Below, piece after piece: positions 6,812-58,872 of a stretch of DNA of 64,000 nucleotides. Numbering within the stretch: position 1 is the first letter of the stretch; each line of letters begins with the position of its first letter. Both the position numbers and the translations under genes were made by a program. The DNA is from a phage, in the sequence record PV808484.1; one strand, 5' to 3'. The notes under the pieces are model-generated. The model was not told the origin of the DNA. It saw nothing but the letters and a program-made list of their open reading frames with translations, and ran no database searches.

Positions 6812-7395
6812 TCTTTGTGTTGTTCTACATGCTCAAGCATTTCATTATATAGTGCTTTAAGATGTGGAACAACTCTTTCATCTTCAGTTTCAAAGAATTT
6901 TGTAAGCTGTTCTGCCTTAGCTTTCAACCAGCAAAGATGCGCTTCAATTTCAGTATTAAAACGTCCCAGCGTTATAACACGTCCATCACGTTGAATATGG
7001 GCTTTATACTTTTTACGATCTTTTTCGTAACTACAGCCTACCATAGTTCCATGAGATCTTTTACTTACTCTATAAGCTAAGAACTTGTTAAGATCTCCTG
7101 TTACTAAAAGACAGGTATCGGGAGAGTAAACCCTCCCTCCTATAATATCTTTATCAAGTTCTAAGTTTTCCCAGTTATCCCAAGTTTGTAACCAGGAGTA
7201 GAAATTGGAGAACAACTTCCATTCTTCGCAAACCGTCACCCCATTATAACAAGGATCACGTTCTTGTTGACAAGGGGAGTAACACCTCCCCAACATAGCC
7301 ATCCATTTCATATAATGAGGTGTTAGTTTCCTACTGCCAGGTAGTGTACTCTCACCTTCCAAATCATTAATACCTTCACCATATACTGTAAACAT
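6799..7395 (-). CDS. AP2-domain putative homing endonuclease
   Basis: 198 aa; AAGGAG upstream; AP2-like segment VGCSYEKDRKKYKAHIQRDGRVITLGRFNTEIEAHLCW. Confidence 0.5.
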   Translation of the reverse strand: MFTVYGEGINDLEGESTLPGSRKLTPHYMKWMAMLGRCYSPCQQERDPCYNGVTVCEEWKLFSNFYSWLQTWDNWENLELDKDIIGGRVYSPDTCLLVTGDLNKFLAYRVSKRSHGTMVGCSYEKDRKKYKAHIQRDGRVITLGRFNTEIEAHLCWLKAKAEQLTKFFETEDERVVPHLKALYNEMLEHVEQHKEWKR

Positions 7396-42903: not shown

Positions 42904-44031
42904 ATGAAATACACGATTTATGGTGATATTGTAAGTGTAAATAAAGATATGGGCGTGGAATCTAACTACCTTCCACCTGGATTCTATACTGTTAGTCGTG
43001 ATCCCCTTGGCAATTATTTTTTAAGCCGTGGTAATCTGACAGGTGTACCGGATGTTCTGTATGGTGAAACAGAAAAACGAGCAAATCACGTTATCCGTAC
43101 ATTCCATCGCCGGAGTGCACAAGGTAAAAATACAGGTTTGCTCCTGACAGGAACTAAGGGCAGTGGTAAAACTATGTTAGCCAAACTCATTAGTCGTGAC
43201 CTTGTAGAAGAAGGTATTCCAACTATTATGGTTACTCAAGCCTACAGCGATGCTAATTTCATTGAACTTATTAGCAAGATCACCGACAAAGCAGTGATTA
43301 TTTTTGACGAGTTTGATAAAGTGTATGAGAAGAAACAAGATCAAGAAGCACTTCTCACTTTGTTAGATGGTACTGGCAGTGGTAATAAACTGTTTATTCT
43401 GACTAAAAACAGTGGTTTTATCTCTGAATTCTTTTTAAATCGTCCTAGTCGTGTGTTTTATAATTTTAATTATGATAAAATCTCACTAGAAACTATGATT
43501 GACTATTTAGATAAAAACCTGGATAACAAAGCACACTTTGATAATTTCCAAAGACTTTGGGATGTAAGTTTAGAGTTGTCCTTTGATGTGATCCAAGGTA
43601 TAGTAGAAGAACTTAATTTCTACCCTGATTTATCCTTTAAAGAATGCATCTCTATGATGGGCGTTTCTTTAGGTGGTGGTAATAAATGGGATATCAGCAG
43701 CGTTGTTATTAATGGAAAACTTCAGAAAGTTAGCTGGGTATCTAGTTGGCATAACTTCACACCTGCAATCTTTTTAGGTGGTTCGTGCACACTAGACGTG
43801 TACTTGTCATCTCCAAGTGATGCAGATTCTAAAGAAGCCCTTGCTAATAGCTCTTACGTGGTTTTTGATGATGAAGGCGATGCTCGAATTCCATTGAATG
43901 CGACAAAAATGAAAGCAGACCTTATCACAGGCGGTAAAATCGTTGTGTTTAGTGATGATCCAGAAGATTCTTTCCGTATTGTTCTGGAACCAACTATCAC
44001 CAATGGTGCAACTTTGGCAAGCGTGTTTTAA
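42904..44031 (+). CDS. P-loop ATPase, paralogue B
   Basis: 375 aa; Walker A GTKGSGKT, Walker B IIFDEFDK; collinear similarity to 27498..28658. Confidence 0.6.
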   Translation: MKYTIYGDIVSVNKDMGVESNYLPPGFYTVSRDPLGNYFLSRGNLTGVPDVLYGETEKRANHVIRTFHRRSAQGKNTGLLLTGTKGSGKTMLAKLISRDLVEEGIPTIMVTQAYSDANFIELISKITDKAVIIFDEFDKVYEKKQDQEALLTLLDGTGSGNKLFILTKNSGFISEFFLNRPSRVFYNFNYDKISLETMIDYLDKNLDNKAHFDNFQRLWDVSLELSFDVIQGIVEELNFYPDLSFKECISMMGVSLGGGNKWDISSVVINGKLQKVSWVSSWHNFTPAIFLGGSCTLDVYLSSPSDADSKEALANSSYVVFDDEGDARIPLNATKMKADLITGGKIVVFSDDPEDSFRIVLEPTITNGATLASVF

Positions 44032-44045
44032 GTAAGCCAGCAAAT

Positions 44046-44072
44046 AAAAACCCGCTTCGGCGGGTTTTCTTG
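44046..44072 (+). terminator. rho-independent terminator
   Basis: AAAAACCCGC-TTCG-GCGGGTTTT then CTTG. Confidence 0.65.
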
Positions 44073-44105
44073 CATTAATGCCAGATTTAATAAGAGGAGT
44101 AGTAG

Positions 44106-45083
44106 ATGGCAGCACCAAAATCATGGGAACAATATAAAGAAGAGTGTATACCAATAGCAGAGAGTAAGCAAATCCAAATCTTAGGATGGACGGGACAATG
44201 GAAAGGGGGCCACACAAAACTTGATTTGTTGTGCCATTGTGGTTATAAATGGGATACTACAAGTATTAACAGTTTTAAATGTGGTAGCGGTTGTCCACAA
44301 TGTAAGAGGGAGAAACAAACAATGTCCGACGATCAACATATTGCAGGTTTCTTTTCTACAGGGAAATTTAAGGAAGGCACTATCTTCACTAACACAGGAA
44401 CACGGGGTAAAGGATGTAGGCATATTACCTGGATGGTTGAATGTCCTGTTTGCTCTCATGATGAATATGTTCAAGCAGGTGTTTGTGATGGTAAATTTTA
44501 CTCTAAAGGACATCGCCTTAAACAAGGGTATATTCCGTGTCGTTGTGGGAAATATCAGTATACAGAAGACCAGATCACCTATAGGGTAAAAAAGGAAGTA
44601 GAAGGGAAAGGGTATGTCTGGGTAGATTGGATTACCAAACCCTCTTCTATAGGTAAGTTTAAATATCTTTGTCTTGTGCATGGTGAGCAGATAGGGAGTG
44701 CTCGTAATTTATTAAGCCTCGGTCAAGGTTGTCCACAGTGTGCTGGTCATAGTCAACAGCAATTATATATTAATATTGTTAAAGATAATGATATTATAGT
44801 TGCTCTTAAGTTTGGTATAGCTAAAGATAGCGATAGACGATTAAACGGTCAAAATAGCCGTAATCTGTTTTTTATGGAGCGTATTTGTTTATATGATTTT
44901 AGCACAGTGAAACAATGTAAGGCTGCTGAAAGAGCTATAAAGAAAAAATTAAAAACTGGTATTTTAACGGCAAGAGAGTTGAAAGATGGTTATACAGAAA
45001 CAGTAAGTGTTTCTGATTTGGAAAATCTTCAAAAAATTATTACACAATATGGTGGCAAGTTAGTATACAGTAAGGAGGTGTAA
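44106..45083 (+). CDS. zinc-ribbon repeat protein, possible GIY-YIG-like (T5orf172-type) nuclease
   Basis: 325 aa; repeated G(S/Q)GCPQC units; C-terminal LYINIVKD...FGIAKDSDRR; low certainty. Confidence 0.4.
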   Translation: MAAPKSWEQYKEECIPIAESKQIQILGWTGQWKGGHTKLDLLCHCGYKWDTTSINSFKCGSGCPQCKREKQTMSDDQHIAGFFSTGKFKEGTIFTNTGTRGKGCRHITWMVECPVCSHDEYVQAGVCDGKFYSKGHRLKQGYIPCRCGKYQYTEDQITYRVKKEVEGKGYVWVDWITKPSSIGKFKYLCLVHGEQIGSARNLLSLGQGCPQCAGHSQQQLYINIVKDNDIIVALKFGIAKDSDRRLNGQNSRNLFFMERICLYDFSTVKQCKAAERAIKKKLKTGILTARELKDGYTETVSVSDLENLQKIITQYGGKLVYSKEV

Positions 45084-45635
45084 ATGCGGATTACTGATAA
45101 GTATGTGTTCTTCTTCTCGGCAAAAGATGAATTTAGCAACTGGTATCTATCATCTTTTATTGAACCTTTAGCTCCCAAGTATAATAATTCTATCACAAGT
45201 TCTGTCGAATTTACTTGTGTGGAACAATATATGATGTGGAGAAAAGCATGTTTATTTTATGATTACAACATTGCATCTTCTATTTTAACCGGAGATCTAA
45301 GATATACAGGAGAAAAAGAACAAGCATATTATAAGCGACTAGGTAGATTAGTTAAAGATTATGATGAAGATACCTGGACTTCTTTACGGGAGAAGATTGT
45401 CAAACGTGGTTTGTATCTTAAATACACACAAAATGAAGATCTCAAAAATAAACTTATAGCTTACGCAGATAAGGAGTTCGTAGAGGCAAGCCCTTATGAT
45501 TCTATTTATGGTATCAAAATGGGGATGTGGGATCGTGATGTTGAAAATAAGGATTGTTGGAAAGGACAAAATCTTTTAGGAAAATGGCATACAGACCTTG
45601 CTGTTTATCTAAAAGCACAATCTGATATTTCCTGA
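45084..45635 (+). CDS. NADAR (YbiA/DUF1768) domain protein
   Basis: 183 aa; VFFFSAKDEFSNWY, VEQYMMWRKA, YDSIYGIKMG match NADAR landmarks. Confidence 0.7.
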   Translation: MRITDKYVFFFSAKDEFSNWYLSSFIEPLAPKYNNSITSSVEFTCVEQYMMWRKACLFYDYNIASSILTGDLRYTGEKEQAYYKRLGRLVKDYDEDTWTSLREKIVKRGLYLKYTQNEDLKNKLIAYADKEFVEASPYDSIYGIKMGMWDRDVENKDCWKGQNLLGKWHTDLAVYLKAQSDIS

Positions 45636-45849
45636 TATTTTGAAAATTTTTATTTTTATAAAAAGGGGTGTGGGTTTCATGTACGGAAATCCACCCTCTG
45701 AATAATATATCCAGAGTAAGTATTATTCTGTACTCTGTTAATAAATTATTTAATTTGTTTGTTGGATTATGATATCTGGTTTTTAAAAGGCATACTATCT
45801 CTTAACTACTACTTATAACAGAACAGTAAAATCATTTTTATAAAAAGGA

Positions 45850-46055
45850 CAAAATTATTTAAAGTTTTTACAGATTTTTGGGTACAAATTTTGAAAATGA
45901 AAAGTTCAAGTTTGGTCAAAATTATTTAAAGTTTTTGTACGTATTTCCATCCAGATTTTGAAAATGAAAAGTTCAATTTTTTAAAAATTCCCCAGTTTAT
46001 TTAAAGTTTTTTTGCCTTTTTCCGTAGAAAAATCAAAAATGAAAAGTTCAATTTC
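45850..46055. repeat. three tandem ~67-bp direct repeats
   Basis: unit TATTTAAAGTTTTT ... TTTGAAAATGAAAAGTTCAA recurs at about 45856, 45923 and 45989. Confidence 0.6.
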
Positions 46056-46072
46056 GTGTTTTTATAGGTATG

Positions 46073-46190
46073 CGTATGATAATCATTCTCATTTGTAAAT
46101 GAGAATCATTATCATTTAATTATGTAAGTGATAATCATTCTCAGTAAGAGAATGAGAATCATTAGCAAATGAGAATTTTCTCATTTAGAG
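46073..46190. promoter_or_regulatory. cluster of three operator-like palindromes (Fur-box-like)
   Basis: GATAATCATTCTCATTT-GTA-AAATGAGAATCATTATC; GATAATCATTCTCA..GAGAATGAGAATCATTAGC; AAATGAGAATTTTCTCATTT. Confidence 0.5.
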
Positions 46191-46447
46191 AATAACGCGT
46201 AGGGGTGGTGTTTGTCTCGCGCTCCCGTGTCCCCTCGCCATACAATAAGAATAGCATAACCAACAACAAAAGCAAGCGATTATTTTTATCTTTACATTTC
46301 TTTACAAATTTATTTTAGACGAGCTACCGGCGATCAACCTTCCAACCAGTGTGCCCTGGTATGTTAGCCCCGCCTTTACGCCGTGGGGGTGGCGCTTCCT
46401 CTTCTGTATGTAAAACAGTATAAGCCCGATCCCTGGGCTTGTCAAGA

Positions 46448-46714
46448 TTATTTTTTGTTTTCTTGCCAGGATAGGACACCTAACCAAAAATACATGTCGC
46501 CCCGCGCCCCTGGCGGGATCTTGCTTTCCCCGCCGCCACTGCAAGCCCATAGATAACCATTTGCGAACGTATCAAAATGATCTATTTCTTCCACCTTATG
46601 ATCGCCCAGGTTGAGAACGGTTTCAACCTTTAAGCCCGTTGCGCTTGCTACCTGGTGCACCGTGCCGCCTTGCCAGCCTAATGAGTGCATGAGGTGTAAA
46701 GTAGTATTTGTCAT
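46448..46714 (-). CDS. hypothetical protein inside GC-rich island
   Basis: 88 aa from internal ATG 46714; opposite strand to neighbouring early genes; uncertain. Confidence 0.3.
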   Translation of the reverse strand: MTNTTLHLMHSLGWQGGTVHQVASATGLKVETVLNLGDHKVEEIDHFDTFANGYLWACSGGGESKIPPGARGDMYFWLGVLSWQENKK

Positions 46715-46824
46715 GGTATCGCCCTTTCTTTGATGTGCGCCCTGGTTGGCGCGGTAGAAAGATAATAGCCCCTTTCCTTTATAGATAGCAAGCAAAAAAG
46801 AAATGAAAAAAGATTAAAAAAGGG

Positions 46825-46853
46825 TTGACGTTCCTCACCTGGTAGCGTATTAT
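46825..46853 (+). promoter_or_regulatory. sigma70-like promoter
   Basis: TTGACG -17 bp- TATTAT; followed by strong SD and a 6-codon ORF (46907..46927). Confidence 0.45.
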
Positions 46854-46979
46854 TCATCTTGTCGAGGGGGGCGAGGCACAACGACAATAAACAAAAGGAG
46901 GGCGCAATGCAGGACGGGCAAAGGTGAGGATCTCCACAATCCACCGTCACAATAACATTACTTATAAAAGGTTGATAAC

Positions 46980-47075
46980 GATGATCAAGAAAGAAAACAG
47001 CTTGACGGTTGGAACGATTAACGCTATCATTTTCGCCGTTCCATTTTGGGTTGTAGTAGCGGTTATTATCTTTTA
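46980..47075 (+). CDS. small hydrophobic peptide (31 aa)
   Basis: MIKKENSLTVGTINAIIFAVPFWVVVAVIIF; AAAAGG upstream. Confidence 0.3.
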
Positions 47076-47130
47076 AAAATATTCTTGACAACGTTTTTTA
47101 ATCTGATAAGATGTATCACATAGGGCGGCA
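47075..47130 (+). promoter_or_regulatory. early promoter + 5' leader hairpin cassette
   Basis: TTGACA 47075-80, -10 TAAGAT, leader CACATAGG, hairpin GCGGC-AATAGT-GCCGC, ATG at 47165. Confidence 0.6.
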
Positions 47131-47164
47131 ATAGTGCCGCTCATAACAGAAGAGAGAAATAATC

Positions 47165-47437
47165 ATGGCATCATATAGCGCATCAATGATCGTAATGGGT
47201 ATCACTGGTAAACCTATGCGCGGTGGCGGATCTTTCGCTAACATCAATATTGATGGACGTTTATCCCTGGACGCAGCGATCACAGTGGCACGGGAAACAT
47301 TTAAAAAAGAATGTAATTTCAATAAACAAGATTATCTCGGTTTCGCTATTGAAAAAACCGCGCGATTTGTGGATTATAAAAGCCCGAAAATGATCGACAC
47401 TACACTAAAAGCGAAAGATGTAGCGTTTTTGCTTTAA
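47165..47437 (+). CDS. hypothetical early protein
   Basis: 90-aa ORF downstream of cassette. Confidence 0.5.
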   Translation: MASYSASMIVMGITGKPMRGGGSFANINIDGRLSLDAAITVARETFKKECNFNKQDYLGFAIEKTARFVDYKSPKMIDTTLKAKDVAFLL

Positions 47438-47447
47438 GACTTGACAC

Positions 47448-47508
47448 TGAAAAATAATTTGGTAATATATACCACATAAGGCGGGGAAATGGTTTCCCGC
47501 CAAGCCAT
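47448..47508 (+). promoter_or_regulatory. early promoter + 5' leader hairpin cassette
   Basis: TTGACA, -10 TAATAT, hairpin GGCGGGGAAA-TGG-TTTCCCGCC. Confidence 0.6.
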
Positions 47509-47526
47509 CAAAGAAAGGGTAACACA

Positions 47527-47889
47527 ATGAGCAAGCAAATCAATACTATCATGTTAAACCTGGTATCTTTCCGCGATGACGTGAAAAATCTTTCGCGTGA
47601 TGCAGTGGATGCACGGATCGAAAGCTATCGCACACAGATCGCAACATTACCGTTAAAACGTGATCAACATGCCGCTAATATGATGCTTGATGCTATGATT
47701 AAAAAGATGATTCAATGTGATCTTACTCTGGCTTATGAATATGCTGGCGATCTTTTTGTAACATATAACAAGCCCGTTCCAGGTATGAGCACCACGGAAG
47801 AATTGCATGCCTTAAATCTGCGACAAGATGCATGGGATAACATGCGCCGTGTTATGGTATGGGTAGAAAGCGGTAAAATTTACGAATAA
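47527..47889 (+). CDS. hypothetical early protein
   Basis: 120-aa ORF. Confidence 0.5.
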   Translation: MSKQINTIMLNLVSFRDDVKNLSRDAVDARIESYRTQIATLPLKRDQHAANMMLDAMIKKMIQCDLTLAYEYAGDLFVTYNKPVPGMSTTEELHALNLRQDAWDNMRRVMVWVESGKIYE

Positions 47890-47895
47890 AAACGG

Positions 47896-47949
47896 TTGAC
47901 ATTGCACTAAAACCTGATAAGCTATCTTAAAGCGGGAATAGTTCCCGCT
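47896..47949 (+). promoter_or_regulatory. early promoter + 5' leader hairpin cassette
   Basis: TTGACA, -10 TAAGCT, hairpin AGCGGGAA-TAG-TTCCCGCT. Confidence 0.55.
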
Positions 47950-47967
47950 TACATAGGATAAAACTTT

Positions 47968-48114
47968 ATGAAACAATATGTAATGAGTATTCACACCAAA
48001 AACGGCGCTACTGTTACGACTCCGGCACGGTTTGCACTTGTAAACCGTTGCAAGAGACTAAAACGAGAGCTAAAAAACAACCGTGCAACGGGCTTTAAAC
48101 GCTGGGGAGGATAA
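47968..48114 (+). CDS. small basic protein (48 aa)
   Basis: not in ORF track; ATG 47968 downstream of cassette. Confidence 0.4.
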   Translation: MKQYVMSIHTKNGATVTTPARFALVNRCKRLKRELKNNRATGFKRWGG

Positions 48115-48116
48115 TC

Positions 48117-48389
48117 TTGTTTTTTCTAAAAGTTTTTGATAATGTGATCGCTTTTGAACATGCTGCAACGTTCAACCTGGCGAGATACGCTATCAGGTTT
48201 AAAGATAATGTTTATCCCCGTGCTGGTGGCGGTTACACTATCTTTAATCATCGTAACGCTCAATTAACGGATATAACGAATCCAGATCCTGGAGTGTATC
48301 GCATAGGTTGGCTACCGTCAAAAGACGCGGCAAGCATGTTTAAGGTGTGTAAACTACTAACAGAAGAGGCGAACGAACATGGGGCGTGA
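48117..48389 (+). CDS. hypothetical protein (TTG start)
   Basis: 90 aa; TTG start with GGAGG 9 nt upstream. Confidence 0.35.
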   Translation: MFFLKVFDNVIAFEHAATFNLARYAIRFKDNVYPRAGGGYTIFNHRNAQLTDITNPDPGVYRIGWLPSKDAASMFKVCKLLTEEANEHGA

Positions 48390-48933
48390 ATATGTGATCC
48401 AGTCCTGGGTAAAGCATGATGCTGATGATCCGCGCATAATACCAGATGACATGATCGATCACATGGTAGGGTATAGCGGGGAGCAGATAGGAAATCGAGC
48501 GGCAAAGAGCAACGGTCACACAAAAACGCGATCCGTTCGCCCTGGTTGGCTGGCAAATGGTAACGCTGACATTGCAAGCGCCGCAGATCCAAGCGATGAC
48601 GCTAAAAATAATCCCTTATACAGCATTGATCCGGCTTTTAAGGTGTTAGAAGAGTATCCCGCTAAATTAGCCGCACTAGATAAAGCATATGAAGAAAAGC
48701 GCATGGCATGGACGGTATACAACACCGCTAAAATGGTGCTAGATGCAAAATTGATTAAAGCCCAGGAGAAGATCAATAAACTTGTTACCATAGCGCAAGA
48801 GGAAGACCAGGACGACCAGGAGGAAGAGGAAGAAATCATGCCTACCCTGGAAGAGGAAGAGATCCAGCCATACATGCCGACGGAAGAGGAAAAAAGACAA
48901 GCCCTAAAAAATTATGAAAATTGTGTTGTGTAA
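48379..48933 (+). CDS. hypothetical protein with acidic C-terminal tail
   Basis: 184 aa; E/D-rich C-terminus (EEDQDDQEEEEEIMPTLEEEE). Confidence 0.45.
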   Translation: MGREYVIQSWVKHDADDPRIIPDDMIDHMVGYSGEQIGNRAAKSNGHTKTRSVRPGWLANGNADIASAADPSDDAKNNPLYSIDPAFKVLEEYPAKLAALDKAYEEKRMAWTVYNTAKMVLDAKLIKAQEKINKLVTIAQEEDQDDQEEEEEIMPTLEEEEIQPYMPTEEEKRQALKNYENCVV

Positions 48934-48936
48934 GGC

Positions 48937-49042
48937 TTGACATATGCAAACAAGCCCCGTAATATGTACCACATAAAGCGGGGCAACGCCCCATAAGGTG
49001 AAATAAAAAATCACTTGACACCTGAAATCAGTAAGCTATAAT
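48937..49042 (+). promoter_or_regulatory. tandem early promoters
   Basis: TTGACA/TAATAT with hairpin GGGGC-AAC-GCCCC, then second TTGACA -16- TATAAT. Confidence 0.55.
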
Positions 49043-50258: not shown

Positions 50259-50317
50259 TTGACAACGTTTTAAATTAGTGTAAGATATATCACATAGGGC
50301 GGGAAATGGTTTCCCGC
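50259..50317 (+). promoter_or_regulatory. early promoter + 5' leader hairpin cassette
   Basis: TTGACA, -10 TAAGAT, hairpin GCGGGAAA-TGG-TTTCCCGC. Confidence 0.6.
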
Positions 50318-50340
50318 CAAATCAAAGAAAGGTTATCATT

Positions 50341-53964: not shown

Positions 53965-54021
53965 TTGACAGCAGAAAAACAACGTAGTAAAGTTTATCAC
54001 ATAGGGCGGCAATAGTGCCGC
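53965..54021 (+). promoter_or_regulatory. early promoter + 5' leader hairpin cassette
   Basis: TTGACA, -10 TAAAGT, hairpin GCGGC-AATAGT-GCCGC. Confidence 0.6.
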
Positions 54022-54044
54022 TCATAACAGAAGAGAAACAAATC

Positions 54045-57109: not shown

Positions 57110-57123
57110 ATAACATTTCATAC

Positions 57124-57150
57124 CAGGGCGCACAAAGCGCCCTTTCTTTT
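57124..57150 (+). terminator. rho-independent terminator
   Basis: GGGCGC-ACAAA-GCGCCC followed by TTTCTTTTT. Confidence 0.65.
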
Positions 57151-57354
57151 TACCTAAATAAAGATGATAGCTTTTACCTATCAAAAACATTCACCGAAAA
57201 AAGTGAATAGATCGCGGTATCGAGCTAATCAAGGAGCAGATGAACAACCATACCATGAAGATCATAAGGCGCTTACAACGTGTTTTAAACCGCTTATTTT
57301 TAATTTCTCCATGTAACTATCTGGCAAAAACAGCCTTTTTCGTGTCTTTCCTCT

Positions 57355-57435
57355 TAAGTGATAATCATTCTTATTTATAGCTGATTATTTATGCAATAAA
57401 CTGCATAATGCAATAATGATAATCATTCTTAACTT
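57355..57435. promoter_or_regulatory. pair of Fur-box-like sites
   Basis: GTGATAATCATTCTTA at about 57358 and AATGATAATCATTCTTA at about 57414. Confidence 0.45.
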
Positions 57436-57439
57436 ATGA

Positions 57440-57780
57440 CCATCTAACCTATAAAATAATAAGTTATCTAACTAAATTAAAGCTAATTATTTCACCTTTA
57501 TTTATAACTTACTGTTACTATCTCATTGATAACCTTATATTAAACAACAATAACTAATATAAATCATTACTAAGCTAAATATAATCTATCTAACCTTTAA
57601 AACTATAACTATAATCTATCGAATTGTTGCACAAAGTAACTATTAAATTGTTAGTAACATTACTAAATAATTCATATCCTATCTATTTATGATCTAATCT
57701 TTACTTTCCTATCTATTACCTAAATAATCCTATCATACAGTTACCATTTCATGTAATAATCATTTCATACAATAACTATA
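57440..57780. repeat. AT-rich iteron-like short repeats
   Basis: recurring CTATCTAACCT / CTATCTAT / ATAACTATAA words in 340 bp without coding potential. Confidence 0.45.
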
Positions 57781-57837
57781 ACAAGAAATATAATTCGCAA
57801 GCGTATCATTAGCAGCCTATGCCGGACACATAGGCGG

Positions 57838-57985
57838 CTAATAATAACGCAACTACACACCCCACATAATAACCATCACCGATAGTTATTATTTGTGCTT
57901 ATGTAGCTTGCAACAATTGCAAGCGCAACAATATACATGGTATATTGTATCCCTTACATTGTTGCGGTGCGTTATTATTAGCTAA
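57838..57985. repeat. long-range inverted repeat with internal palindrome
   Basis: GCTAATAATAACGCAAC ... GTTGCGGTGCGTTATTATTAGC ~110 bp apart; internal CTTGCAACAATTGCAAG. Confidence 0.45.
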
Positions 57986-58282
57986 TGTTTGGAACATTGG
58001 CTATAATATAAGCTAAATAATAAGCTATTCAATAATAAACATAATGAATAATGACACTGATGATCATAATGCGCCACCTTCCAGGGGGCGCTATGTGAAC
58101 ACAAAGAAATCTTTCTTGTCAAGAAAAATATTAACACTATTGCGCAAAATTATTTATGTCTGAATAGATGATTTTTCATACTATTGTTATTATTTATCGG
58201 CCCTAACTATTGCCTATTTGTTGAGCCTACTTTCTTAAAAGCGCAATAAATCAGAATTATCTTGATTTTTAGGGTGTTTTAT

Positions 58283-58305
58283 AGTATAGAAAATATGCAA
58301 ATGAT
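58283..58305. promoter_or_regulatory. Fur-box-like site (17/19 match to GATAATGATAATCATTATC)
   Basis: GCAAATGATAATCATTATC read directly. Confidence 0.5.
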
Positions 58306-58482
58306 AATCATTATCAGCTATCTTCCACGGGTGGCACTATTTCACGCAGGATCATTTCATTTGGCAAGGTGTATATAGATGTTTAGACTTGCCAAGCCAT
58401 TGATTTACTTAGAATTTATCTGTTTTGTTGTGAGTAGTACCTTTCTTGCTCAGAAAATAATCAAAAGTCTTATAAGTCATTG

Positions 58483-58515
58483 AATGATAATGCAAATGAT
58501 AATTATTCTCATTGA
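58483..58515. promoter_or_regulatory. overlapping Fur-box-like sites
   Basis: GAATGATAATGCAAATGATAATTATTCTCATTGAT. Confidence 0.45.
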
Positions 58516-58632
58516 TATTTGAGGGGGACGGTCGGCAGAAATCGGGGGGCGCTGAAAATCGCGTTAAGCACCTCTCGCAAGCGAGCAGTATTTTGCGGCA
58601 AGTTATTGATATTATTGGCTTTACGCTTATGG

Positions 58633-58730
58633 AAAGGGGGTGTGTCGAAATAAATCGGGTATACCGGAAAATTTTTGTGGCATAGATATTTATTTGTCTA
58701 TATTATGTACAAAGGGGTGTGTTAAAAATA
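58633..58730 (+). repeat. two copies of AAAGGGGTGTGT-containing ~35-bp direct repeat upstream of paralogue array
   Basis: AAAGGGGGTGTGTCGAAATAAATCGGGTATACC and AAAGGGGTGTGTTAAAAATATTAGGTATATA; third core copy at 45661. Confidence 0.45.
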
Positions 58731-58872
58731 TTAGGTATATATAGAATAATTGATAGGGAAATCCTATACTAATTCCTCCATTAATGATGTTTCTATGTTG
58801 CTGTTCTTGTAACAGATGAAAAGACGCTGTATGATGTGTAGCATGAAACGTAAATTTATAAAGGAGTCTGAT

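Follow-up and report, generated by a model that had tools for sequence, protein, structure and literature searches.

A candidate leftward control module with a near-invariant non-coding core heads the early genes of phi92-like phages

The DNA examined here, referred to below as the window, is a stretch of 64,000 nt from a phage (record PV808484.1), and all coordinates refer to its whole length. By type the phage is a phi92-like Escherichia coli myovirus: the 1.9 kb around the locus of interest match about 50 such phages, members of the Stephanstirmvirinae (Justusliebigvirus, Phapecoctavirus), at 96%–98% identity, with phage outra the closest (98.2% over 1.9 kb and 99.3% over the GC-rich island alone). 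This island, at 46200-46900, had been picked out by eye in a preliminary description, and windowed GC content bears it out (0.471 for 46200-46900 and 0.503 for 46300-46760 versus a window mean of 0.377; z about 3.7 with a standard deviation of 0.03 per 500 nt). Nowhere else in the 64 kb does a stretch of 500 or 700 nt match it, and the adjoining 45636-46199 has a GC content of 0.252, among the lowest in the window. In annotated relatives the locus falls within about 1.5 kb of nearly unannotated sequence, with a NADAR-domain gene on one side and small plus-strand genes on the other, and the same gap between plus-strand genes was present in every lineage examined. The phi92 record names a minus-strand open reading frame (ORF) in it gp224, and the record of phage alia places two "repeat_region" features upstream.

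Comparison of these loci indicates that the island is not foreign DNA; it is best described as the GC-rich center of a leftward (antisense) module, itself conserved, that heads the early-gene block in phi92-like phages and most rV5-related genera. The module runs in the order small minus-strand gene, terminator hairpin lying within a promoter (P1), invariant segment of about 120 nt, phased sites with a second promoter (P2), Fur-type palindromes, and three AT-rich repeats. We consider this anatomy, together with the calls of the two small genes described below, highly probable. Promoters were scored as consensus matches out of 12 positions, and the features, read leftward, are as follows.

46791->46762, minus strand: predicted promoter of the minus-strand ORF, TTGCTA-18-TATTAT, 9/12.
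46737-46752, minus strand: 5' hairpin GCGCC-AACCAG-GGCGC, following that promoter.
46451-46714 (stop codon 46448-46450), minus strand: protein-coding gene for an all-helical 88-aa product, phi92 gp224 family, phrog_19316.
46445->46417, minus strand: P1, predicted early-class sigma70 promoter, TTGACA-17-TATACT and then GTTTT-ACATA, 11/12.
46411->46289, minus strand: the core, the 5' part of the predicted P1 transcript, about 120 nt and near-invariant, ACAGAAGAGGAAGCGCCACCCCCACGGCGUAAAGGCGGGGCUAAC-hairpin-GGAAGGUUGAUCGCCGGUAGCUCGUC...UUUGUAAAGAAAUGUAAAGA.
46343-46363, minus strand: hairpin in the core with compensatory changes.
46289-46308, no strand assigned: tandem pair TCTTTACA-nn-TCTTTACAAA with a 10-bp period, invariant, directly upstream of the P2 -35.
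46275->46248, minus strand: P2, predicted sigma70-type promoter, -35 TTGCTT (46275-46270), 16-nt spacer, -10 TATTCT (46253-46248).
46200-46247, minus strand: GC-rich conserved start of the predicted P2 transcript, ATGGCGAGGGGACACGGGAGCGCGAGACAAACACC..., containing CCCCTCGCC, with the putative start at about 46241.
46074-46190, no strand assigned: cluster of Fur-like 15-bp palindromic boxes TGA(T/G)AATCATT(C/A)TCA at 46077, 46100, 46129 and 46153, plus a degenerate one at about 46170.
45834-46054, no strand assigned: three AT-rich, iteron-like direct repeats of about 67-79 bp, each with ATTATTTAAAGTTTTT and TTTTGAAAATGAAAAGTTCAA.
45664-45700, no strand assigned: GC hairpin closing the gap on its left side, -20.1 kcal/mol in the plus sense (z -3.3) and -11.8 kcal/mol in the minus sense.
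45084-45635, plus strand: NADAR-domain gene (Pfam E 2.5e-36).

Non-coding sequence makes up 46200-46445. The stretch 46289-46445, the left third of the island, was not mentioned in the preliminary description and is conserved far above the level of the ORF beside it. In a sensitive BLAST search, 46289-46414 showed 82%–85% identity to Vequintavirinae phages of Klebsiella, Cronobacter, Proteus, Pectobacterium and Salmonella, whose DNA is otherwise unalignable with the window and whose records mostly leave the segment unannotated. Scans of IMG/VR, 185,579 species genomes and JGI/ENA metagenomes with exact core patterns returned about 40 distinct copies from Stephanstirmvirinae and Vequintavirinae, each on a contig belonging to this phage group, as well as two hits due to chance; the sole match in the genome-collection scan was one metagenome-assembled contig, itself phage-like. 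The hosts of the phages that keep the core sequence span E. coli, Klebsiella, Salmonella, Cronobacter, Pectobacterium, Serratia and Proteus. None of 5,426 E. coli genomes matched the core, and a derivation from, or mimicry of, host sequence was rejected on that basis.

In an alignment of 39 core sequences, two long stretches, ACGGCG-n-AAAGGCGGGGCUAAC and GGAAGGU-nn-AUCGCCGG, do not vary. Indels of 1 and 2 nt occur as well, and a central part is variable both in length and in sequence, a pattern that rules out a coding function. A covariance model built from this alignment found a single copy in the window and no second one, and none in the ORF-free region of phage rV5. An Rfam scan of 44000-49000 at E ≤1 gave nothing in 46200-46450; its two hits, both at chance level and both outside the core, were an RsmY terminator-like match at 44046 and an L2 leader at 47113. 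Literature searches likewise turned up no published description of the element.

Within the core, RNAalifold and explicit pair counting identified one hairpin whose stem is maintained by compensatory changes in the 39 sequences (alignment pair 57-79 is AU in 24 and GC in 15; pair 60-77 is CG in 37 and GC in 2; pair 62-75 is AU in 23 and CG in 2), and whose terminal loop varies in sequence and from 4 to about 8 nt in length. This covariation was reached by 0 of 500 shuffles, and slid controls fell from 97% to 25%–45% of cells paired. The other helices proposed for the core never vary; the G-U pairs of the outer helices fit the minus sense only. Among the possibilities raised by the preliminary description, a structured RNA comes closest to the evidence, although the segment and strand are different ones: the candidate is the minus-sense 46411->46289 behind P1, neither the ORF nor the plus-strand leader.

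P1, also absent from the preliminary description, is the best sigma70 match in 45500-48000. Each of the 41 distinct sequences (41/41) has an equivalent scoring 9–12 of 12, and the distance from the end of its -10 to the invariant ACGGCG is 25-32 nt. P1 also fits the early-promoter pattern of the phage (TTGACA-N16/17-TAnnnT-N5-ACATA) that is seen before five plus-strand early genes. The spacer of P1 is itself a GC hairpin (46423-46440) that directly follows the stop codon of the minus-strand ORF, so that terminator and P1 overlap. This spacer hairpin also covaries between lineages (AGCCC..GGGCU, GCCCC..GGGGC, CCCGGA..UCCGGG; -7 to -13.6 kcal/mol).

The early-promoter cassette to which P1 is related recurs on the plus strand at 47085-47160, 47441-47520, 48937-49000, 50259-50330 and 53965-54040, and on the minus strand at 24395-24358. 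It consists of TTGACA-N16/17-TA(A/T)nnT-N5-ACATA followed by a 5' G/C hairpin (e.g., GGGCGGC-AATAGT-GCCGCTC) and often by a ACAGAAGAG ribosome-binding region. The P1 region (46445->46407) has the promoter part of the cassette and its ACAGAAGAGG tract, but no start codon after them.

P2, a weaker call than P1, lies about 135 nt downstream of it and scores 7–9 of 12 across the 41 distinct sequences (e.g., TTGCAA-17-TATATT, TTGATC-16-TATTAT), and in most lineages its -10 is followed by ACA-CAT(A/G)GCG. Its transcript is predicted to start at ...AUGGCGAGGGG, which is the left-hand G/C motif of the preliminary description. A small ORF at this start (MARGHGSARQTPPLRVIL) was rejected, being out of frame in one locus (L032) and having ATA for ATG in Vequintavirinae. 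The TCTTTACA-nn-TCTTTACAAA pair in front of P2 is probably a protein-binding or UP-like site; Stephanstirmvirinae carry a 10-bp insertion between the pair and the P2 -35 that keeps the helical phase, and the TCTTTACA motif is not enriched elsewhere in the window.

One IMG/VR contig (UViG_2974574029, L028) departs from this arrangement. At about 6990-7080, in the minus sense, an ORF beginning MKKVYGVGVND..., which we take from its start motif to be homing-endonuclease-like, stands behind AAGGAGG. It is inserted directly after the core's ...GATCGCTGGTA and replaces the TCTTTACA pair and P2, so that the core there is a 5' untranslated region. Separately, one Klebsiella phage record annotates an HNH endonuclease under its core match.

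These observations bear on whether the core works as RNA, as DNA, or as part of a longer leftward unit. The P1 product could be a discrete, trans-acting early small RNA of about 110-130 nt that binds a conserved host factor (protein or RNA), with the boxes and repeats being separate elements. An early-class promoter directly before the core, invariance across phages of seven host genera (as expected if the factor is conserved in those hosts), and the purine-rich, GGA-containing stretches that adjoin the covarying hairpin would all fit such an RNA. However, the core is followed by no intrinsic terminator or conserved 3' end, its fold stability is ordinary, and E. coli DNA neither resembles it nor has extended complementarity to it; P2, moreover, comes next and reads the same way, an arrangement suggestive of one continuous unit. 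The pairing of GGAAGGUGGAUC, considered as an anti-Shine-Dalgarno decoy, with the 3' end of 16S rRNA was no better than that of shuffled sequence, and the decoy was rejected. On balance we regard a discrete small RNA as rather unlikely.

Alternatively, the core may act as double-stranded DNA, namely as a protein platform (a pac site, a recombination- or partition-like site, or a landing pad for an initiator) over which transcription is incidental. Its near-total invariance, scant covariation and ordinary folding energy agree with this, the phased TCTTTACA pair and the phase-keeping 10-bp indel are DNA-type features, and several GenBank records and metagenome contigs start or end within about 2 kb of the locus. 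Such records are a minority, though, and the repeats could break assemblies there; a strongly conserved promoter faces the core; and the variable segment keeps its pairing by compensatory changes while its loop changes length, which is a property of single strands. A role confined to DNA appears distinctly improbable to us.

Two further resemblances within the core were set aside. GCCGGTAGCTCG recalls the RfaH ops site (GGCGGTAGnnTG), but the essential T is a G in several lineages; a boxA/nut reading of TCTTTACAA fails on strand (plus, the wrong one for the conserved promoters) and on a spacing unlike that of nut. The put sites of HK022 and nut sites of lambda are cis-acting leader RNAs, and like them the element lies directly downstream of an early promoter, with a small hairpin and a larger irregular stem-loop, and would act ahead of any coding sequence. 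It differs in having no sequence or Rfam match to them and no obvious downstream terminators that need read-through, and in that its boxA-like TCTTTACAA is on the plus strand.

To the left of P2, the palindromic boxes (TGATAATCATTCTCA, TGAGAATCATTATCA and close variants) resemble operators of the iron regulator Fur. The Fur box of Enterobacteria is a 19-bp sequence, GATAATGATAATCATTATC, also described as a 7-1-7 motif, TGATAATnATTATCA, and the boxes at 46077-46167 differ from the latter by one or two bases, with perfect copies in relatives; the dominant half-site here, in contrast, is TGAGAAT instead of TGATAAT, and the cluster lies downstream of the promoters. The agreement exceeds chance: at ≤2 mismatches the 7-1-7 motif occurs nine times in the 64 kb (0.82 expected), and the 19-bp Fur box five times (0.03 expected). 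In all 17 representatives (17/17) a box with 0–1 mismatch stands at a set distance of 185-250 nt from the core; its sequence is frequently TGAGAATGATTATCA, and some copies agree fully with the Fur consensus. The cluster can also form long hairpins, with 19-nt arms that are 95% complementary. Inside it there are only weak (9/12) promoter matches, and no operator placed over a -35/-10 pair as in Fur regulation was found; literature searches on Fur boxes in lytic phages returned nothing relevant.

Four further copies of the palindrome occur at 57359, 57417, 58302 and 58497, within a second large, very AT-rich and ORF-poor region (57110-58815) that ends the early-gene block after a clean terminator (57125-57143). 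At 58302-58316 the agreement with the Fur 7-1-7 motif is complete (TGATAATCATTATCA), and 17 of the 19 positions of the 19-bp Fur box are matched by 58297-58315; three units of about 37 nt (58051, 58295, 58490) pair a box with CTTCCA(C/G)GGG. Two box-bearing non-coding regions, at 46.1 kb and 57.1-58.8 kb, thus bracket the early genes (46.8-57.1 kb).

Beyond the boxes lie the three AT-rich repeats, with spacings of 67 and 75 bp and 72%–73% identity in the window. Five other lineages have exactly three repeats as well, spaced 63-78 bp apart and of different sequence (6/6 lineages with the layout). ToxI-like antitoxin repeats were considered and rejected, since the window repeats measure 67-79 bp and have no Rfam hit; the pseudo-ToxI of phage phiTE is a 36-nt repeat (PMC3475682). 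No conserved ORF was found in the leftward stretch.

Taken as a whole, we favor the reading that the module is an early leftward non-coding unit, most plausibly a transcription-activated origin or control region, and give it a probability of about 0.5. Within it, leftward non-coding transcription is probable, whereas a function as origin or control region, argued by analogy, is tentative and on its own less likely than not. The proposed sequence of events is that host sigma70 RNA polymerase would start at the three minus-strand promoters at the start of infection. The promoter at 46791->46762 would express the 88-aa helical protein, with its message ending at the hairpin in the P1 spacer, and P1 would make a non-coding RNA of which the first ~120 nt (46411->46289) are almost invariant and hold the one covarying hairpin. 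P2, preceded by the two phased TCTTTACA sites, would add to leftward transcription, which would then cross the four to five Fur-like palindromic operators and, after them, the three iteron-like repeats of about 70 bp. A conserved factor would recognize the invariant RNA or DNA segment, with the palindromes serving as the gate.

The layout is what points to an origin or control region. In the primary origin of T7 (promoters phi1.1A/1.1B facing an AT-rich stretch), the R-loop origins oriF and oriG of T4, and the lambda ori (iterons and pR), a transcript opens or primes the DNA. Like these, the module has tandem promoters directed into an AT-rich region, direct repeats beside inverted repeats, and a non-coding unit in the early region, an arrangement that fits transcription-activated and iteron origins. 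It differs from them in that its promoters are of the host sigma70 type and its invariant, GC-rich transcribed segment of ~120 nt has no counterpart there; its repeats are long (~70 bp) and exactly three, and DnaA boxes are lacking. Our literature searches found neither a mapped replication origin nor a described non-coding RNA for phi92-like and rV5-related phages, and nothing relevant on transcriptomes of Vequintavirinae or Stephanstirmvirinae.

An ORF-free region of 2.6 kb has been reported in rV5, where an origin search by skew analysis was unsuccessful (PMC3606486). This region (NC_011041, 104013-106618) resembles the module in being a large non-coding stretch within the small-ORF region of a related phage and in having a box-like GAGAATnnTTATCA and an iteron-like array. 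It contains nine copies of CTGTTYAC (0.35 expected), five of them within 130 bp, as well as box-like GAGAATACCTATCAC and GAGAATAGTTATCA, and looks like an iteron array of its own. It differs in that the flanking genes converge there, and it was rejected as a homologue for lack of detectable similarity and of a core copy.

Several observations weigh against the proposed leftward unit and its role as an origin or control region. The promoters are consensus matches, and their support comes from conservation alone. In stability the fold of the core is unremarkable (z -1.0 in the minus sense, +0.16 in the plus sense), and only one of its helices covaries; given this ordinary stability, structure alone does not account for the invariance, and something reads the core sequence. 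No discrete terminator follows the core, and the core is not universal in the group, being absent from rV5 and from the genus Vequintavirus. The Fur-like boxes lie at +45 to +165 downstream of the putative P2 start (46241), those at 46077-46167 some 75-165 nt from it, and not over the promoter, and they could bind a phage protein instead of Fur. The GC-skew minimum is at about 41 kb, where gene orientation flips, and not at 46 kb; because skew follows gene orientation, however, it is uninformative about the origin. DnaA boxes are not enriched in the window (19 versus 21.9 expected) and there are none in the gap, and a DnaA-dependent origin was rejected for want of a cluster of them. Finally, the hairpin at the left edge (45664-45700) is stronger in the plus sense, which leaves the end of the leftward unit uncertain: its probable role is to terminate or stabilize the plus-strand operon that precedes it, whose NADAR gene stops at 45635, and since a U5 run comes after it in the minus sense, it may also end leftward transcripts.

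The minus-strand ORF had been noted in the preliminary description as an antisense frame, and it does lie opposite to all neighboring genes. At least 21 homologues of conserved length (41%–100% identity), purifying selection and third-position excess identify it as a genuine protein-coding gene. Among 5.8 billion proteins searched, 21 relatives turned up, mostly of 86-93 aa and with identity down to 41%, that share an N-terminal LGWQGGTVHQVAxATGL motif (invariant form L-x-LM-x2-LGWQGGTVHQVA-x-ATGL) and a C-terminal FWxG. When the fetched loci were examined by tblastn, no Stephanstirmvirinae locus had a broken copy of the ORF, and it was also intact in Av-05 and in lineages of the Certrevirus type and others; dN/dS was 0.09-0.42, with changes clearly in excess at third positions. 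In 4/4 independent contigs, the gene is antisense to its neighbors and is followed by about 800-900 nt without called genes. Its promoter is back-to-back with the first rightward early promoter and has a sigma70-like counterpart in 10/12 lineages.

The product has a confident all-helical structure model with no fold match. Fold and profile searches gave no backing for a helix-turn-helix, and that assignment was rejected, as was a role as iteron- or box-binding protein, given that repeat type is not linked to ORF type across lineages. Annotation of the gene is uneven among relatives: in alia (MN850632) the homologue is started at an internal GTG (70 aa) though the full 88-aa ORF is intact, and in TSP7_1 (MW175890) an annotated 95-aa ORF (L012 2911-3198) overlaps the true homologue (L012 3029-2769), itself unannotated, by about 120 nt.

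That the island might be a horizontally acquired moron had been one of the earlier suggestions. On this account the 88-aa gene is a foreign cassette with its own promoter and terminator, and the conservation of its flanks is hitch-hiking. The gene does stand out in codon usage, with GC content at third codon positions of 0.52 versus 0.26-0.47 in neighboring genes. Like phage morons, it has a promoter and a terminator hairpin of its own (so judged from consensus and conservation) and is replaced in some relatives: KB57, Mydo and 4MG (Mydovirus and Seunavirus phages) have an unrelated ORF of about 62 aa in the slot, and one locus (L050) has both ORF types in tandem. The core-plus-ORF block is 78% identical at the nucleotide level between the window and Av-05 (Vequintavirinae), where the flanks do not align, and TSP7_1 carries an Av-05-like allele of the ORF.

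Against an acquired moron, the position is the same in all lineages examined and the slot is always occupied, within a larger conserved architecture and in lytic phages. In other lineages the GC content of the ORF follows or falls below the local value. The most conserved part of the island is the non-coding segment and not the ORF, and KB57, Mydo and 4MG keep P1 and the core without this ORF. All 21 source-named homologues are phage or phage-like and on phage-sized contigs, and neither a non-phage homologue nor a bacterial counterpart was found. The gp224-family gene appears to behave as a cassette exchangeable within the phage supergroup, not as a bacterial import, and a moron in the sense proposed finds weak support and is improbable.

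To the right of the module, three plus-strand features make up the remainder of the locus.

46825-46853, plus strand: first rightward early promoter, TTGACG-17-TATTAT, 10/12, conserved in relatives.
46860-46980, plus strand: 5' leader found only in some relatives, holding a 6-codon ORF and GGGGGGCGAGG.
46981-47076, plus strand: conserved gene for a 31-aa protein with one hydrophobic, membrane-type segment.

The promoter is where the preliminary description had placed it, and the hydrophobic ORF exists one base to the right of the coordinates first given. The 31-aa sequence is conserved as a protein, with relatives at about 52%–55% identity keeping KK-x-N...G-x-IN-A-x-I-x-AVP-x-W, and it was present in 108 phage records (100 of them at full length) at varied positions among early cassettes. 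It is a real, ordinary gene for a conserved early small membrane protein. It is unannotated in phi92 (FR775895) and many other records. In phi92 an extra 93-aa gene, gp225, is inserted at the 3' end of the ORF (L002 4454-4782 versus window 47049-47075), and the phi92 copy of the peptide diverges over its last third (73% identity).

The 6-codon ORF (MQDGQR*, 46907-46927) is likewise present behind AAGGAGG (46895-46901), but it is not conserved as a leader: it has a stop at codon 2 in alia, and its Shine-Dalgarno sequence is altered in one locus (L018). In TSP7_1- and Phapecoctavirus-type loci (L012, L035), 46860-46950 is replaced by the standard 5' hairpin and the 31-aa gene is kept; in two others (L017, L033), what follows the leader is another gene, of 65 aa. 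Being noise, the 6-codon ORF should not be annotated.

A small toxic-peptide locus had been envisaged; if 46860-47076 were one, of type I or controlled by a leader, the 6-codon ORF would control a membrane-damaging 31-aa peptide. The peptide does have a charged N-terminus followed by about 20 hydrophobic residues, as in Hok/TisB/Ibs-type peptides, and the Shine-Dalgarno sequence of the mini-ORF is strong. Yet the mini-ORF is interrupted in alia, many relatives keep the peptide gene without the leader, and no conserved leader ORF coupled to the peptide gene was found. A promoter scan revealed no minus-strand promoter in 46792-47200 for an antisense RNA over the gene, the leader fold has a z of 0.02, and among Pfam and PHROG families no toxin matched the product. 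Like other early cassettes the peptide gene changes place, and lytic phages retain it throughout the 108 records. The evidence leaves this idea unsupported, and we consider it very improbable.

The two inverted G/C motifs said to bracket the island also dissolve on comparison. CCCCTCGCC (46231-46239) and GGGGGGCGAGG (46866-46876) share a mere 7-nt complement (CCTCGCC/GGCGAGG) at a distance of 630 nt, and a repeat search with a minimum length of 10 did not report the pair. They coincide with the first transcribed bases predicted for P2 (minus) and for the 46825 promoter (plus), respectively, two divergent promoters, and are not element ends. The right-hand motif is missing in relatives without the 46860-46950 leader, and the apparent brackets are noise.

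The window encodes neither tRNA nor tmRNA. Ahead of the NADAR gene lies another (44106-45083), which encodes a CapR and T5orf172 endonuclease-like protein (PHROG "endonuclease"). Its length is 978 nt here, 1398 nt in alia (L001:1087-2484) and 1191 nt in phi92 (L002:1294-2484), and such variation among close relatives suggests a mobile or decaying homing-endonuclease gene. Among the matching records, those labeled "Campylobacter phage A110a/B15" (MG065689, MG065650), and one each for a Pseudomonas, an Acinetobacter and a Serratia phage, share 92%–98% identity with E. coli phi92-like phages at the locus, and their host labels may be wrong or the sequences may stem from contaminating coliphages.

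The 88-aa and 31-aa ORFs merit annotation as genes; they are truncated, misframed or omitted in several GenBank records (MN850632, MW175890, FR775895, OK210077 and others). In the most far-reaching version of the proposed control unit, the ~120-nt segment would be an undescribed early phage non-coding RNA, acting in cis with the Fur-type operators and the three-iteron array as a replication origin or master switch, with Fur-sensed iron gating replication or the early-to-middle transition; we hold this version to be unlikely. Palindromes matching the Fur consensus on either side of the early genes nevertheless suggest a link between host iron physiology and the lytic program of the phage, for which we found no describing paper. 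More generally, phi92-like and rV5-related phages are common in therapeutic collections, and the module offers a concrete candidate for their origin or regulatory center, with coordinates, strand, promoters, a core and natural compensatory variants of its hairpin.

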